A stretch of DNA of 64,000 bases from the NCBI GenBank assembly GCA_037481835.1, contig JBBFKW010000008.1:64001-128000 (forward strand), read 5' to 3'. A program made the position numbers and the translations under genes. The notes under the pieces were generated by a model. That model was given only the letters and a program-made list of their open reading frames with translations, was not told where the DNA came from and did not search any database. The stretch's first letter is position 1. Every line of letters starts with the position of its first letter. This document shows, piece by piece, positions 3,181-8,539 of this stretch. This DNA is from Desulfosoma sp. Lineage in GTDB: Bacteria; Desulfobacterota; Syntrophobacteria; Syntrophobacterales; DSM-9756.

Positions 3181-4107
3181 ATGAAAAGATGGGTCTTTTT
3201 GTTTCCCGGCCAAGGGTCCCAGTATGTGGGCATGGGCAAGGACTTGTATGAGAACTATCCGAAAGTTCGGGAACTGTTCCACCGTGCCGACGATATTCTC
3301 GGCATGGGGATCACCAAGCTCTGCTTCGAAGGGCCCGAAGACGTCCTGACCCAGACGCAAAACGTCCAGCCGGCCATCACGGTGGCCAACCTGGCGTGCC
3401 TCACGGTCTTGGCCCATCACGAAATCTTCCCGGTGGCGGCCGCCGGGCACAGCCTGGGCGAATACAGCGCCCTGTACGCCGCCGGTGTCTTGTCGCTGGA
3501 AGACACTTTGAAACTCGTCCGATGGCGCGGGCTCTATATGCACGAGGCATCCTTGGAGACGCCCGGGGCCATGGCCGCCGTCATGGACATGCCGGAAGAG
3601 AGGCTTCAAAACATCTGCCGGCTGTGCGATGTGGAAATCGCCAACATTAACAGCCCGGACCAGGTCATCATCACGGGACCCGTGGACGCCGTCGACAGGG
3701 CTTTGGAAGCCAGCGCCGCCGAAGGGGCCAAGAAATGCGTGAAGCTTAATGTGAGTGGCCCGTGGCATAGTCGGTGCCTGGAATCGGCCCGACAGAAGTT
3801 CGAACCCCATGTGCGGGCCGCAGCTTTTTCCGACCCGAGAATCCCCATCGTCAACAATGTGGACGCCAAGCCCCTCAAAAACGCCGCCGAAGCCCCGGAA
3901 AAGCTTGTTCGGCAAATCTGCGGCGCCGTCTTGTGGAAGCAATCCATGGAGTGGTTTTTGGCCAACGGCTATGATCACTTTGTGGAAGTGGGACCCAAAA
4001 AGGTCCTCCGGGGGCTCATGCGGCGTATCGACCGGAAAGTCATCATCCACAACGTGGAAGATGCCGCAACCCTGGCCTCATTCCTCCAGGCCAACGGCTC
4101 CGACTAG
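3181..4107 (+). CDS. fabD: Malonyl-CoA:ACP transacylase
   Basis: FPGQGSQ, GHSLGEYSAL, NINSPDQVII, VSGPWHS and EVGP motifs. Confidence 0.95.
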   Translation: MKRWVFLFPGQGSQYVGMGKDLYENYPKVRELFHRADDILGMGITKLCFEGPEDVLTQTQNVQPAITVANLACLTVLAHHEIFPVAAAGHSLGEYSALYAAGVLSLEDTLKLVRWRGLYMHEASLETPGAMAAVMDMPEERLQNICRLCDVEIANINSPDQVIITGPVDAVDRALEASAAEGAKKCVKLNVSGPWHSRCLESARQKFEPHVRAAAFSDPRIPIVNNVDAKPLKNAAEAPEKLVRQICGAVLWKQSMEWFLANGYDHFVEVGPKKVLRGLMRRIDRKVIIHNVEDAATLASFLQANGSD

Positions 4108-4269: not shown

Positions 4270-6429
4270 TCACTCATGGGTCTCTTGATACAGGACTTGT
4301 ACGGCTTGGTGGATGACGGTTTCCGGGACGGCGGTGCGTCTTTCGACGCGGCCGATACCCTGTGGGACGATCCACACGAGTCCTGAGGCGCCTTTCTTCT
4401 TGTCGTGGTGGATGTGGCGAAGCAGCCCTTGGGAATCGGCCGCAAGGGGCGTCGTCAGCGGCAGGTGATAGGCCCGCAGGACGCGATCCATCCGCGCCGC
4501 CAGTTCCGGATCCGTTACCCCCAAAAGGATCCCCATTCGGACGGCCACCCTCATCCCGAGGGCCACCGCATGACCGTGGGGAAGCGTGTAGCCGCTCAGG
4601 GCTTCCAGGCCGTGACCCGTAGTGTGCCCCAGATTCAGCAGTTGGCGCAGCCCGAAATCCTTTTCGTCGGCCGCCACGTAACGGCCTTTCAAGGCAAGGC
4701 TTCGAGAGACGAGATTCTGCGCCATGGAAAGCGGCAGCGGGAAGGACACCCCTTTCGGGCCGCAGGCATCGGCATGGGCTTCCAGGGTTTCCATGAGGCC
4801 GCCGTCGTCTAGGAGGGCGTACTTGATCACTTCGGCCATGCCGTTTTGCCATTCCGCATCGGGCAGTGTCTGGAGAAACACGGGATCCACCAGAACGGCC
4901 TGGGGGTGATGGAACGTGCCGATGAGGTTTTTCCCTTCCTCGAGATCCACCCCCGTTTTTCCTCCGAGGCAGCTGTCCACCTGGGCCAAAAGCGTTGTGG
5001 GCACCTGGACCAGGGGAACGCCCCGCATGAAGATGGAGGCGAGAAAACCGATGACATCCCCCGTGACCCCGCCTCCCACGGCGACAAAGACGCTGCCGCG
5101 GTCCGCGCCGTGCCTCAGGGCAATCCGGGCGAGTTCTTCCACCGTCTGGAGGCGCTTTTTGTCTTCACAGGCGTCCCATTCGATCCATGCCTCGGAAAAC
5201 TGCTCGCGGCCCAAGGTGTCCCCCCACAGGGACGCCACCTTCCGGTCCACGAAGAAGTAGGGGCGGCGTTCCGGGACATGGTCCCGCAGCCATGAGCGAA
5301 GGGACTTGGCCCCATGAGGTTCCAAGGTGACGGCAGGGGGAAGGCACAGAGCCCAAGAGGGCCCCTCGTGAATTTTCATTGTCGTCGCCTGGGAGACCGC
5401 AGCGTGCGGTGACCGGGGCGCGGCGTCCCCCGTCCCGACGGCGTCCTCCATCGAAGTTTCAGCGTGCCCTGACAAAGCAGAAGCCGGAGAATTATCCTCT
5501 TGGTGGGCCGGGGCTTCGCGGCCTTTACCGTCCCCGGCGTTCGGCAGACTGTGCCCGTGGTTGTTGGCGTTGTGGTGCCAAGTGAGGAGTCTGTTCGTTT
5601 CTTCCAGGGCCTGGAGGCAGAAGTCCCCGAAATGGGACCGGGTTTTTTCGAAGGCCTCAAGGAAGTCCTGCCACCGGCCGTGTTCCACGGCATCGGCGGT
5701 TTCGGAAAACACGCGGCGAAGCACCCGAAGCGCTTCATTCTTATAGGGGTTTTCCATGGCGATGGCCGCATAGAGGGCCGGATCCTGGGCGAACAGCCTT
5801 CCGATGAGGTCCAATTCCAACCGGTAGATGGGGCTCGTATACCGCAGGCTTTCCGCGGCGTCGATCCCCAGGTCCCTGAGACAATGCCCCAAGACCACCG
5901 TCGTCACGTGGGGGATAAGCTGGATGACGGTCATCATGCGGTCGTGTTCTTCCGCCGAACACACGTGAATCTTGAGACCCGCGCGGCGAAGCACATCCAT
6001 GAGCCATTCCCGGGGACCGTCGGCCACCCGGCCCGGGCACACGATCATGGTCTGGCCGACGAAATCCTTGACATAAGGCCCATACATGGGATGGAGGCCC
6101 ATGTACCATGCGGCGGATCCTTCCATGGCTTTCAGGGGCGGCACTTTCAAAGAGCAAATGTCCACGACCAACTGGCCCGATCGAAACCGCGGGGCCAGGC
6201 TTTCCAATATACGGAAAGCTTTGTGGAGCGGCACGCTGACGAGGACGGCATCCGACCGATCGATGACGTCTTCGTTGCTAAGCGGCGTGGCCACATCGGA
6301 TATAGCGACCGGGTATCCATGGTCCTCGAAGAACCGATGAAAGAGCTTGCCCATGGCGCCCAGGCCGCCGATGATCCCGATGCGGGGTTTGTCCTTCCAG
6401 TGACTAAAATCCGACACGCTTTCCGTCAT
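4270..6429 (-). CDS. tyrA-aroB: Fused prephenate dehydrogenase (TyrA) and 3-dehydroquinate synthase (AroB)
   Basis: N-terminal IGIIGGLGAMG, GLHPMYGP, EEHDRMM. C-terminal GGGVTGD, VPTTLLAQVDS, GGKTG, EVIKY, LNLGHTTGH, HGHAV. One continuous 719-aa ORF. Confidence 0.85.
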   Translation of the reverse strand: MTESVSDFSHWKDKPRIGIIGGLGAMGKLFHRFFEDHGYPVAISDVATPLSNEDVIDRSDAVLVSVPLHKAFRILESLAPRFRSGQLVVDICSLKVPPLKAMEGSAAWYMGLHPMYGPYVKDFVGQTMIVCPGRVADGPREWLMDVLRRAGLKIHVCSAEEHDRMMTVIQLIPHVTTVVLGHCLRDLGIDAAESLRYTSPIYRLELDLIGRLFAQDPALYAAIAMENPYKNEALRVLRRVFSETADAVEHGRWQDFLEAFEKTRSHFGDFCLQALEETNRLLTWHHNANNHGHSLPNAGDGKGREAPAHQEDNSPASALSGHAETSMEDAVGTGDAAPRSPHAAVSQATTMKIHEGPSWALCLPPAVTLEPHGAKSLRSWLRDHVPERRPYFFVDRKVASLWGDTLGREQFSEAWIEWDACEDKKRLQTVEELARIALRHGADRGSVFVAVGGGVTGDVIGFLASIFMRGVPLVQVPTTLLAQVDSCLGGKTGVDLEEGKNLIGTFHHPQAVLVDPVFLQTLPDAEWQNGMAEVIKYALLDDGGLMETLEAHADACGPKGVSFPLPLSMAQNLVSRSLALKGRYVAADEKDFGLRQLLNLGHTTGHGLEALSGYTLPHGHAVALGMRVAVRMGILLGVTDPELAARMDRVLRAYHLPLTTPLAADSQGLLRHIHHDKKKGASGLVWIVPQGIGRVERRTAVPETVIHQAVQVLYQETHE

Positions 6430-6489: not shown

Positions 6490-7563
6490 TCACGAGGCCC
6501 CGGCCGCCGCCTTGGCCGTATCGTCCCGGCCTTTGCGATGGGTCCTGAGGATGGTTCGCCCCACGGCTTGGGCCACGGGCTCGAGCCGATCCAGGAGGTT
6601 CGCCATGGCTTCGGGCGTCAGGGATTGGGATCCGTCACTCAGAGCCTCGTGGGGCCGCACATGCACTTCCAGCATGAGCCCGTCGGCGCCGGCGGCCACG
6701 GCCGCACAGGCCATGGCGGGAATGAGGTCCGTGCGACCCAGGGCGTGGCTGGGATCCACGATGACCGGCAGGTGGGTGAGTTTTTTCAGCAAAGGCACGG
6801 CGCTGAGGTCCAAAGTGTTTCGCGTTTCCGTCTCAAAGGTGCGGATGCCGCGTTCGCAGAGGATCACCTTCTCGTTGCCGTGGCTCACGATGTATTCGGC
6901 CGACATGAGGAACTCTTTGATGGTGGCCGACATGCCGCGTTTGAGGATCACCGGCTTGTCCACCTGCCCCACTTCGGTCAAGAGTTTGAAGTTTTGCATG
7001 TTGCGCGTGCCGATTTGGAGCACGTCGGCGTATTTGTAGACCAGAAGCAGGTCTCGGGCGTCCATGACCTCCGTGACCACCGGCATGCCGGTGCGGCTGC
7101 GCACGTCGCTCATGAATTTCAGGGCCAGTTCCCCAAGCCCCTGGAAGCTGTACGGGGATGTGCGGGGTTTGAAGGCGCCGCCCCGCAGCATGGGAATGCC
7201 CAGGGCGTGGAGAGCGTCCGCGATTTCATCAAGAACCTCCCTGCCCTCCACAGCGCACGGGCCGGCGATGATGGGAATGGAGCGACCGCCCAGTTCCACG
7301 TGGGCGCCGATGGAAATGGTCGTGTTTTCTTCCTTGAACTCGCGGCTCACGAGTTTGTACGGCTGCAGGATGGGATGTGCCGCTTCCACGCCCGGAAAGC
7401 TTGCAAAAGGAATCTCCTGGATGAGGTCCCTTTCGCCGATGATTCCCACGATGGTGCGGCGTTCGCCCCGGGAAAGATGGGTGCGCAACCCCATCTTTTC
7501 CACTCGAGCCACCAGTTGCCTCAGTTCTTCGTCCGTGTGTTCGGGTTTCATGACAACAATCAT
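6490..7563 (-). CDS. aroF: DAHP synthase, type I-beta, with N-terminal regulatory domain
   Basis: IAGPCAVE, GGAFKPRTSPYSFQG, QIGTRNMQN, CERGIR and DPSH motifs; MIVVMK N-terminal domain. Confidence 0.93.
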   Translation of the reverse strand: MIVVMKPEHTDEELRQLVARVEKMGLRTHLSRGERRTIVGIIGERDLIQEIPFASFPGVEAAHPILQPYKLVSREFKEENTTISIGAHVELGGRSIPIIAGPCAVEGREVLDEIADALHALGIPMLRGGAFKPRTSPYSFQGLGELALKFMSDVRSRTGMPVVTEVMDARDLLLVYKYADVLQIGTRNMQNFKLLTEVGQVDKPVILKRGMSATIKEFLMSAEYIVSHGNEKVILCERGIRTFETETRNTLDLSAVPLLKKLTHLPVIVDPSHALGRTDLIPAMACAAVAAGADGLMLEVHVRPHEALSDGSQSLTPEAMANLLDRLEPVAQAVGRTILRTHRKGRDDTAKAAAGAS

Positions 7564-7649
7564 GGCAGGTCCTCCTTGCCTTGTGTCTGAGGAAAACGCG
7601 CGTGTTTCCCTCTTTGTTTAAGTTATCGGCACGGTCGTGCCGAACCTCC

Positions 7650-7685
7650 AAAACACAAAAGGCCGTGAGCTTGTGCCCACGGCCT
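7650..7685 (-). terminator. Second (downstream) terminator-like hairpin of the aroF leader
   Basis: Minus strand AGGCCGTGGGC-acaa-GCTCACGGCCT followed by TTTGTGTTTT. Confidence 0.65.
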
Positions 7686-7697
7686 GGCAAGGTCCAT

Positions 7698-7735
7698 AAA
7701 AAAGGCCGTGGGCTTTTGGGGTCAGCCCACGGCCT
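7698..7735 (-). terminator. Attenuator terminator hairpin of the aroF leader
   Basis: Minus strand AGGCCGTGGGCT-gaccccaaa-AGCCCACGGCCT-TTTTT, a perfect 12-bp stem with a U tract. Confidence 0.85.
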
Positions 7736-7765
7736 CGGTGCCGGCGTCCAAGGACTTCGGACGGC

Positions 7766-7852
7766 TCAGCGCGGTGGTCGGCCGACCCCATCGGGGCCGT
7801 AATACCACCCATAATAAAAGTAAAAGCGCCGAGCCGTTCCCTTGATGCTCAT
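7766..7852 (-). CDS. Aromatic-amino-acid attenuation leader peptide MSIKGTARRFYFYYGWYYGPDGVGRPPR
   Basis: Hand translation, 28 aa. Eight of nine consecutive codons are aromatic (2 Phe, 5 Tyr, 1 Trp). GAAAGGA RBS. Lies between a promoter and the terminators upstream of aroF. Confidence 0.85.
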   Translation of the reverse strand: MSIKGTARRFYFYYGWYYGPDGVGRPPR

Positions 7853-7906
7853 CGTCCGTCCTTTCAGGTGGACCATCACGCCCTGCGTACTCTTGGCAGG
7901 TGATCC

Positions 7907-7936
7907 CTTATAGAGGAGCTCATCGGGGGATGTCAA
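7907..7936 (-). promoter_or_regulatory. Putative sigma70 promoter of the aroF leader/operon
   Basis: Minus strand TTGACA (7936-7931)-N18-TATAAG (7912-7907). Confidence 0.55.
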
Positions 7937-8006
7937 GAGCCTTGGTGCATTTTTTTCGGCACTGCGGGGAGGGGGTCGTCGTGCGCGCTCTCTTTAGAAC
8001 TTTTCC

Positions 8007-8035
8007 TTGACAAGCCGAGGGGGATTGCCTATAGG
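8007..8035 (+). promoter_or_regulatory. Putative sigma70 promoter of rplM-rpsI
   Basis: TTGACA-N17-TATAGG. Confidence 0.5.
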
Positions 8036-8083
8036 ACTGAGCTTCGAGTCGGTCACCAGTGGCGGTTTAATGGAGATATACGC

Positions 8084-8539
8084 ATGAAAACGACCAGTGC
8101 CAAGTTTGATGCCAACGGAAGAAAGTGGATCGTGGTGGACGCCGAAGGTCAGGTTCTCGGCCGGTTGGCCAGCGAAATCGCCGTGAGGCTTCGGGGCAAA
8201 CATCTGCCCACCTTTTCCCCCCATCTGGATACGGGCGATTTCGTAGTGGTCATCAACGCCGAAAAAGTTCGTCTCACCGGCCGCAAGTGGGACCAGAAAA
8301 AATACTATCGCCATTCGGGCTACCCCGGAGGGCTCAAGGTCACCACGGCGAAGAAACTCAATCAGGAACACCCCGAGCGGCTCATTGAATTCGCCGTGCG
8401 CGGCATGCTCCCCAAGAATCGACTGGGCCGCAAGCTCCTCAAGAAGCTCAAGGTCTACAGCGGGGCCGAGCATCCTCATGAAGCCCAGCAGCCCACCCCG
8501 TTGAAACTCGGCGGCCGGGCGCCGGTAAAGGAGTCGTAA
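8084..8539 (+). CDS. rplM: 50S ribosomal protein L13
   Basis: [47 protein letters not shown]. Confidence 0.98.

Follow-up and report, generated by a model that had tools for sequence, protein, structure and literature searches.

A probable tyrosine- and phenylalanine-codon leader-peptide attenuator upstream of the aroF / tyrA-aroB operon in Desulfosoma sp. and related Syntrophobacterales

The two-gene operon aroF / tyrA-aroB of Desulfosoma sp. is very probably preceded by a ribosome-mediated leader-peptide transcription attenuator of the classical ribosome-stalling type, a reading drawn from the sequence of the locus, its comparison with relatives and its predicted folds. The element lies on the minus strand of the window, a stretch of 64,000 nucleotides (contig JBBFKW010000008.1 of assembly GCA_037481835.1, positions 64,001 to 128,000) to which all positions given below refer. 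Its mechanism is already known, and the element itself is an unannotated attenuator that is conserved in Syntrophobacterales. Most likely, this leader reads tyrosine first and phenylalanine second, with tryptophan handled by a leader of its own.

Inspection of the minus strand revealed a -35 hexamer TTGACA (7936-7931) and a -10 hexamer TATAAG (7912-7907) separated by an 18-nucleotide spacer. When the eight loci of the window's family (f1) were compared by eye, TTGAC followed by A, C or G was found at the same spot in all of them, as was TATAA followed by A or G, and the 18-nucleotide spacing was maintained throughout. Downstream, a ribosome-binding site AAAGGA (7864-7859), represented in the relatives by a purine-rich stretch before the leader ATG, is followed by the leader ORF, which runs from the ATG at 7852 to the TGA at 7768-7766 and comprises 28 codons plus the stop (MSIKGTARRFYFYYGWYYGPDGVGRPPR); an alternative in-frame ATG at 7876 could give a leader of 36 amino acids. 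The putative regulatory codons 10-18 (7825-7799), UUU UAC UUU UAU UAU GGG UGG UAU UAC, read F Y F Y Y G W Y Y, with eight aromatic residues in nine (two Phe, five Tyr and one Trp). Both Phe codons and three of the five Tyr codons are the minor synonymous codon of the genome (TTT 33%, TAT 32%).

Two intrinsic terminators, T1 and then T2, are located between the leader ORF and aroF. T1 (7735-7698) has a 12-bp stem extending from A7735-U7703 up to U7724-A7714, a 9-nucleotide loop and six U residues at 7703-7698. T2 (7685-7650, hairpin 7685-7660), with an 11-bp stem, a 4-nucleotide loop and the tail UUUUGUGUUUU, is present in 8 of 8 f1 loci. About 90 nucleotides, containing two further small hairpins, separate T2 from the strong ribosome-binding site (7577-7570) of aroF. 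This gene (7563-6490) encodes a DAHP synthase of class I-beta with an N-terminal ferredoxin-like domain (Pfam DAHP_synth_1 and DAHP_snth_FXD), and it is followed by the last gene of the operon (6429-4270), assigned by domain search to a TyrA-AroB fusion of prephenate dehydrogenase and 3-dehydroquinate synthase, so that the entry enzyme and a Tyr-branch enzyme are encoded together. A convergent acyltransferase gene on the plus strand (3181-4107) closes the operon, and the upstream neighbour of the leader, rplM, has the opposite orientation. The preliminary description of this DNA had listed the same promoter, ribosome-binding site, 28-amino-acid ORF, 12-bp terminator with its U tract and aroF in this order, all of which we confirmed on the minus strand; T2 is an addition to that anatomy. 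A scan for consensus promoters and terminators, which requires a T at the last -10 position and a loop of at most 8 nucleotides, lists neither the leader promoter nor T1.

A total of 41 related genomes were searched for an aroF orthologue (at least 65% identity, tblastn), which was found in 29. In 28 of these 29 loci, an ATG-started ORF with at least five aromatic residues in nine is located 90-320 nucleotides upstream of the orthologue. At the remaining locus, L015, a contig end leaves 217 nucleotides of upstream sequence, which starts with the tail of an aromatic-rich ORF. The conserved loci belong to 12 genera and three families (f1, f2 and f3) of a single order, Syntrophobacterales. The same element was also found in public records of a Desulfacinum MAG and of Syntrophobacterales and Syntrophobacteraceae MAGs, several of which duplicate genomes already counted. 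Among 75 distant AroF loci from other phyla (L036-L110), no comparable ORF was detected except in L062 (Anaerolineales) and in L086 (Chloroflexota), where the candidate, an automatic pick with eight aromatic residues in nine, lies 285 nucleotides upstream; in L041 of this set, the upstream sequence was too short for an ORF call. Within the orthologous leaders the N-terminal codons vary freely, unlike the aromatic run and the segments engaged in RNA pairing, which are conserved. In L017 and L025 the leader stops earlier and the downstream RNA motif is retained, which indicates that the 3' part of the ORF is constrained as RNA and not as peptide.

Folding of the leader region gave a free energy of -168.6 kcal/mol (z = -8.6 compared to shuffled sequences). 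In the minimum-free-energy fold without a ribosome, the leader forms a long hairpin (7840-7759), a candidate anti-antiterminator, which is built from an outer helix (7840-7826 with 7772-7759), a mid helix (7809-7804 with 7778-7773) and an inner helix (7799-7793 with 7789-7783); an internal loop of this hairpin holds the aromatic codons, which are AU-rich, and T1 and T2 form downstream. In 30 of 33 loci, a hairpin scan detected T1 at 19-38 nucleotides past the leader stop, and in the other three it was discernible by eye, with mismatches. In the eight f1 sequences, 97% of the cells were paired for T1, 98% for T2, 91% for the inner helix, 90% for the mid helix and only 71% for the outer helix. 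Since the T1 and T2 helices are near-invariant in f1, they are uninformative for covariation.

The 5' strand of the candidate antiterminator (7790-7773), supported by complementarity, folds and covariation, lies within the leader ORF, and its 3' strand (7734-7717) is formed by the 5' arm of T1 and its loop. As stated in the preliminary description, UGGGGUCGGCC (7790-7780) can pair with GGCUGACCCCA (7727-7717) over 11 positions with one G-U, and this pairing was exact. The duplex of leader and T1 has a free energy of -27.4 kcal/mol, compared to -15.4 +/- 2.75 kcal/mol for dinucleotide shuffles of the leader segment, of which 1 in 2000 was as low. Of the 10 G/C-rich pairs of the T1 stem, the contiguous 11-bp helix covers only 3 (4 of 12 stem positions when U7724 is included); full coverage of the stem requires a helix of 15 pairs with two internal mismatches, in which the 11 pairs are joined by 7778/7777 with 7729/7730 and by 7774/7773 with 7733/7734.

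In the eight f1 sequences the 11-pair antiterminator was paired in 96.5% of cells, and two pairs showed changes on both sides. The f1 alignment was then enlarged by a pattern scan of metagenome contigs, which yielded seven f1-type copies; five were added and two, which duplicated existing rows, were omitted. In the resulting 13 f1-type sequences, 97.9% of the 188 cells of the 15-pair helix were paired, compared to a maximum of 53% in slid controls. Three pairs carried double-sided and five single-sided changes, and 1 of 500 shuffles was as good. For instance, the column pair 89:151 is U-A in eight sequences, C-G in three and U-G in two. All 13 sequences are close relatives from one family, and the covariation is therefore real but shallow. 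Across the order, where the T1 loop varies among lineages and the leader 3' strand varies along with it, cognate duplexes of leader and T1 loop had a mean of -17.1 kcal/mol versus -13.9 kcal/mol for non-cognate ones, a difference reached in 0 of 10,000 permutations, which ignore relatedness. Most of this signal comes from f1, and the f2 loci L013, L014 and L018 were no better than average. RNAalifold applied to 27 sequences from leader to T1 returned zero consensus pairs.

The comparison of aroF upstream regions proposed in the preliminary description thus yielded both an aromatic-rich upstream ORF and covarying stems, and its reading of the locus as a leader-peptide attenuator is borne out by a conserved ORF, a conserved terminator and a conserved antiterminator that covaries. 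These same observations make it scarcely credible that the ORF is a chance occurrence and that the terminators are leftovers, or serve to end an upstream transcript, with no regulation taking place. Such an explanation would have to accommodate the near-complete conservation of the ORF together with a promoter and a ribosome-binding site that have been kept, and the covariation; the upstream neighbour rplM is transcribed the other way, and the same design is repeated before two other aromatic-related operons (see below).

Under the attenuator reading, when charged tRNA-Tyr and tRNA-Phe are available the ribosome would pass through the leader. It would then either cover 7790-7773 while T1 is made, given that codons 21-26 hold the antiterminator strand, or be released, upon which the long hairpin would refold. 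Either way the segment would be unavailable, T1 would form and transcription would terminate at 7703-7698, where T2 would provide a backup downstream. When charged tRNA-Tyr is scarce (and, to a lesser degree, tRNA-Phe), the ribosome would stall within codons 10-18 and open the leader hairpin, and the freed segment 7790-7773 would pair with 7734-7717 before the 3' arm of T1 is made, so that T1 would be blocked. The freed 3' arm of T1 might in turn, with weaker grounds, pair with the 5' arm of T2 and disarm the second terminator too.

We also analyzed the fold of the leader with a ribosome at defined positions, an approach suggested in the preliminary description, and the outcome was mixed. When the full T1 was included, T1 won at equilibrium in all ribosome states (probability of 0.96-0.98 in L001, the element described here), which implies that any switch must be kinetic. 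The textbook trp attenuator switch is also kinetic. In a truncated model, in which the transcript stops where the T1 loop ends and 28 nucleotides around the A site are masked, the expected number of leader-to-T1 pairs in L001 was 0.2 in the ribosome-free state and rose to 8.7-15.0 when a ribosome occupied any one of the eight aromatic codons. With the ribosome at the stop codon, 11.3 leader-to-T1 pairs were still predicted, and the off state would consequently depend on timing or on refolding after release. A ribosome-dependent switch like that of L001 was predicted for L002-L004 and L008. In L005-L007 and L031 the antiterminator was predicted even without a ribosome, and seven f2 and f3 loci (L009, L013, L014, L018, L019, L023 and L033) showed almost no leader-to-T1 pairing in any ribosome state. 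When the mean pairing over the entire 5' arm of T1 was taken as the measure, the ribosome states were not discriminated. This crude model of ribosome position fits the element of the Desulfosoma type, the genus of the window, and is not general across loci.

T1 and T2 have the same stem sequence, and as a result the 3' arm of T1 is perfectly complementary to the 5' arm of T2. A possible relay helix, with 10 perfect pairs between 7713-7704 and 7684-7675 (7713-7675 overall), could therefore form on the minus-strand transcript. In the f1 loci L001-L007, the relay duplex (-24.0 to -25.5 kcal/mol) exceeds the own stem of T2 (-20.8 to -23.4 kcal/mol) in strength, and it is the stronger of the two in 13 of 22 two-terminator loci. 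With a ribosome at Tyr17 and a transcript reaching the T2 loop, the unconstrained minimum-energy fold combines the antiterminator and the relay (-75.5 kcal/mol). When the antiterminator was enforced, the relay survived to the end of T2, at -81.7 kcal/mol versus -91.0 kcal/mol for the global fold with T1 and T2. In L016 and L129 the T1 stem has diverged and the 5' arm of T2 is altered in parallel. These modelled folds make a relay from T1 to T2 plausible and, if real, it would explain why the two stems have been kept alike, a likeness that could equally have arisen by duplication or gene conversion.

Genome-wide, 76,722 short ORFs (8-45 amino acids) were screened, and 19 entries contained at least six aromatic residues in nine, corresponding to 11 distinct ORFs when those with a shared stop codon were merged. 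Three distinct aromatic-rich ORFs had a terminator-like hairpin within 150 nucleotides, and two of these lie directly before DAHP synthase genes. The third was rejected as spurious, being located inside a membrane-protein gene; C1 and C14, two other aromatic-rich short ORFs, were discarded for want of a target gene or for their position within another gene. Besides the aroF leader, this genome carries the Trp-rich leader MQQSRNLHFWWCWWWCVAHGCADGGASL, with a FWWCWWWC run, before a paralogous DAHP synthase gene (51% identity) that heads trpEGDCFBA. It is followed by two tandem terminators, whose stem type is shared with the aroF leader. A third leader, the Tyr-rich MNGRVYSGDSFYYGYGYLRRSARR, precedes a Liv-type ABC transporter operon and also has T1 and T2. 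In both the Trp and the ABC transporter leaders the T1 loop differs, and each loop is matched by the 3' strand of its own leader. Among ten loci of the trp-type paralogue, a Trp-rich leader was picked automatically in eight and recognized by eye in a ninth, and none was found in the tenth. The families f2 and f3 possess a third DAHP synthase, which is joined to prephenate dehydratase and an ACT domain in one fusion protein, and a Phe-rich leader precedes it in 10 of 10 sampled loci; f1 is without this Phe-type gene. As a side observation, pheA in the genome of the window lies at the start of contig C3.

The stem GCCGUGGGC / GCCCACGGC is unusually constant over the three families and over three different operons of this genome, and genome-wide the hairpin with a CCGUGGG stem is confined to the three attenuators, 6 of the 10 matches being both strands of three sites. 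This pattern would also suit a protein or another trans factor that binds these hairpins and decides on termination, with the ORF playing at most a supporting part. We consider such a factor quite improbable, given that the hairpins remain constant and the codon runs switch between Y, W and F according to the branch of the pathway, which indicates the codons as the sensor, and that the relay between T1 and T2 would account for the constancy of the stems equally well.

With the codons as the sensor, one leader per DAHP synthase isoenzyme would represent a division of labour that replaces integration by a single leader. It can be proposed, tentatively and at somewhat less than even probability, that aromatic biosynthesis is governed by a regulon based on leader peptides only, in which each DAHP synthase paralogue is grouped with its branch genes and a dedicated leader, of the Tyr/Phe type for TyrA-AroB, the Trp type for TrpEGDCFBA and, in the sister families, the Phe type for the fused prephenate dehydratase; an ABC importer of aromatic type would have a fourth leader of the same build, and all would share the two-terminator relay.

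The preliminary description had proposed that a single leader integrates Phe, Tyr and Trp. In the 28 orthologous leaders, Tyr is the most frequent aromatic codon in all three families (35 Y, 24 F and 7 W in f1; 35 Y, 6 F and 5 W in f2; 80 Y, 23 F and 7 W in f3). The share of Phe among the aromatic leader codons is 32% in genomes without the Phe-specific gene and 17% in those with it (13 versus 15 genomes, phylogeny being ignored), which makes Phe sensing plausible. About equal sensing of all three amino acids, with every end product integrated at the pathway entry, is nevertheless unlikely, even though the leader does hold two Phe, five Tyr and one Trp codon, the Trp codon is conserved in 12 of 13 f1-type sequences and a ribosome modelled at W16 is just as effective in freeing the antiterminator as one placed at a Tyr codon. 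Trp is represented by one codon versus five for Tyr, and this UGG sits in the 5' strand of the mid helix, so RNA structure can explain its conservation; L007 has GGG at this position. In f2 and f3, the leader is without a Trp codon in 10 of 20 loci and, where one is present, it is often outside the aromatic run. The genome has, moreover, the separate Trp-rich leader before its second DAHP synthase gene and trp operon, and the operon under the aroF leader carries the Tyr-branch enzyme TyrA-AroB. A further argument comes from aroR of Corynebacterium glutamicum, a leader with Phe-Tyr-Phe located before aroF (cg1129), from which transcription is increased under limitation of Phe and reportedly not of Tyr (Neshat et al., 2014, as reported in PMC11802643; PMC4046766). 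Of the two codon types in this leader, one reportedly elicits no response (according to the account in PMC11802643), so that the presence of a codon is no proof of sensing. Hence, the proposed three-way integration holds only in part, with Tyr codons dominant and Phe sensing plausible, whereas the Trp part is weak, with a single codon embedded in a helix and a separate Trp leader. For the aroF leader, a Tyr-first, Phe-second readout remains the preferred interpretation.

Rfam contains leader families named Trp_leader and Phe_leader. A cmscan search of positions 7400-8200 against Rfam with E values up to 10 gave three chance-level matches (best E of 3.2) and no leader or T-box family. Searches with the leader peptide gave no match in the NCBIfam profiles at E values up to 10, and only a chance-level match in Pfam (E of 0.22).

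Among described systems, aroR of C. glutamicum, as far as it is described in the sources cited above, resembles the present element in having a short mixed Phe/Tyr leader before a DAHP synthase operon in which stalling raises transcription, as would be the case here. The likeness is one of description and, unlike the three-codon Phe-Tyr-Phe of aroR, the Desulfosoma leader has eight aromatic residues in nine, is dominated by Tyr, is followed by two tandem terminators, has tyrA-aroB as partner and occurs in another phylum. Within the literature searched, leader-peptide control of the shikimate entry step has been shown experimentally only in Corynebacterium. Like the arrangement predicted here, E. 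coli trpL and pheL, as summarized in PMC11802643, combine a leader ORF carrying regulatory codons with mutually alternative antiterminator and terminator hairpins, and a further hairpin upstream masks the antiterminator strand. The present element differs from the trpL and pheL described there in its Tyr/Phe codons, in an antiterminator that pairs mainly with the loop and upper arm of T1, and in its second terminator.

Other predictions have also been published. In Acholeplasma, the uORFC-13-1 motif (Brewer et al., 2021, PMC8632094) places a predicted ORF containing Phe codons immediately ahead of a terminator and aroF, an arrangement like ours. As described there, that motif differs in being restricted to Acholeplasma and environmental sequences and in containing one or more Phe codons but no run of Tyr codons, and both elements are predictions. 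Song et al. (2005; PMC1173090, Table 7) list putative attenuators of unspecified type in front of operons combining a DAHP synthase gene and tyrA. The literature searched, which left most subscription journals outside its coverage, contained no account of a Tyr-rich leader from Syntrophobacterales. Regarding the isoenzymes, the summary in PMC11802643 describes three DAHP synthases in E. coli that are end-product-specific via TyrR and TrpR, and the layout proposed here would be similar to that scheme in that each paralogue answers to one aromatic end product. In contrast to the TyrR and TrpR repressor proteins, the sensor would here be a leader peptide encoded in cis for each paralogue (Tyr/Phe and Trp, and Phe in the sister families).

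As the mechanism is a textbook one, the gain is incremental, and only the tandem-terminator relay and the layout with one leader per isoenzyme would go beyond it. For the annotation of this genome, three so far unannotated regulatory ORFs can be added together with their terminators. If true, the occurrence of Tyr-, Trp- and Phe-type leaders on one scaffold would provide a natural series for how codon choice sets specificity, and control by one leader per paralogue would correspond, in cis-encoded form, to the isoenzyme logic that TyrR and TrpR provide in E. coli. Collectively, leader control of shikimate entry, with a codon-specific leader for each DAHP synthase paralogue, appears to be in use throughout an order of syntrophic and sulfate-reducing bacteria.

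Between the second terminator, T2, of the predicted attenuator and the aroF ribosome-binding site, two further small hairpins are located (window 7627-7642 and about 7588-7611), both of which are conserved in the window's closest relatives (L001-L004). The partner gene of aroF encodes a single protein of 719 amino acids (window 4270-6429), a fusion of prephenate dehydrogenase and 3-dehydroquinate synthase with a low-complexity linker, some 80 residues long, between the two parts.

Inspection of the leader peptides revealed proline-rich motifs immediately before the stop codons, namely RPPR, RPPC and PPPC in the window's own family, f1 (window 7766-7783), and PPG at the C-terminal end, just ahead of the stop codon, of many Phe-type leaders (L113-L122). 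Such ends could make the ribosome pause while it covers the antiterminator strand, although the same bases are also under RNA-pairing constraint.

In the Syntrophobacterales families f2 and f3, Phe-rich leaders with 4-7 Phe per run were found upstream of genes for DAHP synthase-prephenate dehydratase-ACT fusions in all ten sampled loci (L113-L122), followed on the 3' side, again in 10 of 10, by a conserved CCCCGGG hairpin and a terminator with a CCCCGAGG stem; fusion genes of this type were represented by loci L133 and L134. Phe-rich leader and fusion gene together constitute a Phe-specific module of f2 and f3, and f1 is without it. The window's genome carries a pheA cluster (L112, G000:C3:93-3068) in the order upstream ORF, pheA (with the prephenate dehydratase domain PF00800) and an ORF of 295 amino acids, the first of which may resemble an archaeal-type dehydroquinate synthase II. 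This cluster begins at the contig edge, and its upstream control region is absent from the assembly.

Among distant loci, an Anaerolineales MAG (L062) contains the ORF MDQATNSKKYFFYYYFWWEEVPPLLRVD about 209-122 nt upstream of DAHP synthase. Within a stretch of 9 residues of this ORF all 9 are aromatic, and in Chloroflexota it probably represents an independent aromatic leader. In several Gallionellaceae and Nitrosomonadales loci (L066, L070, L080, L087, L092, L096 and L108), the DAHP synthase gene is repeatedly preceded by a very short upstream ORF containing Trp (e.g., MFTAACWNWA), and these ORFs may be Trp leaders.

Two more attenuators were located in the window's genome. At L111 (G000:C6:79800-92200), the Trp-rich leader FWWCWWWC and two tandem terminators, both of the same stem type as at the aroF attenuator, occupy about 518-720; downstream, a DAHP synthase paralogue (51% identity) is the first gene of an operon continuing with trpE-G-D-C-F-B-A to about 10240. 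The third attenuator (L135, G000:C21:20300-25700), with the leader SFYYGYGY at about 285-359 and terminators T1 and T2 extending to about 470, is built as in the window and has a CCGTGGG stem in both terminators. It precedes a Liv-type ABC transporter operon (one binding protein, two permeases and two ATPases), and this transporter may be an aromatic amino-acid importer.
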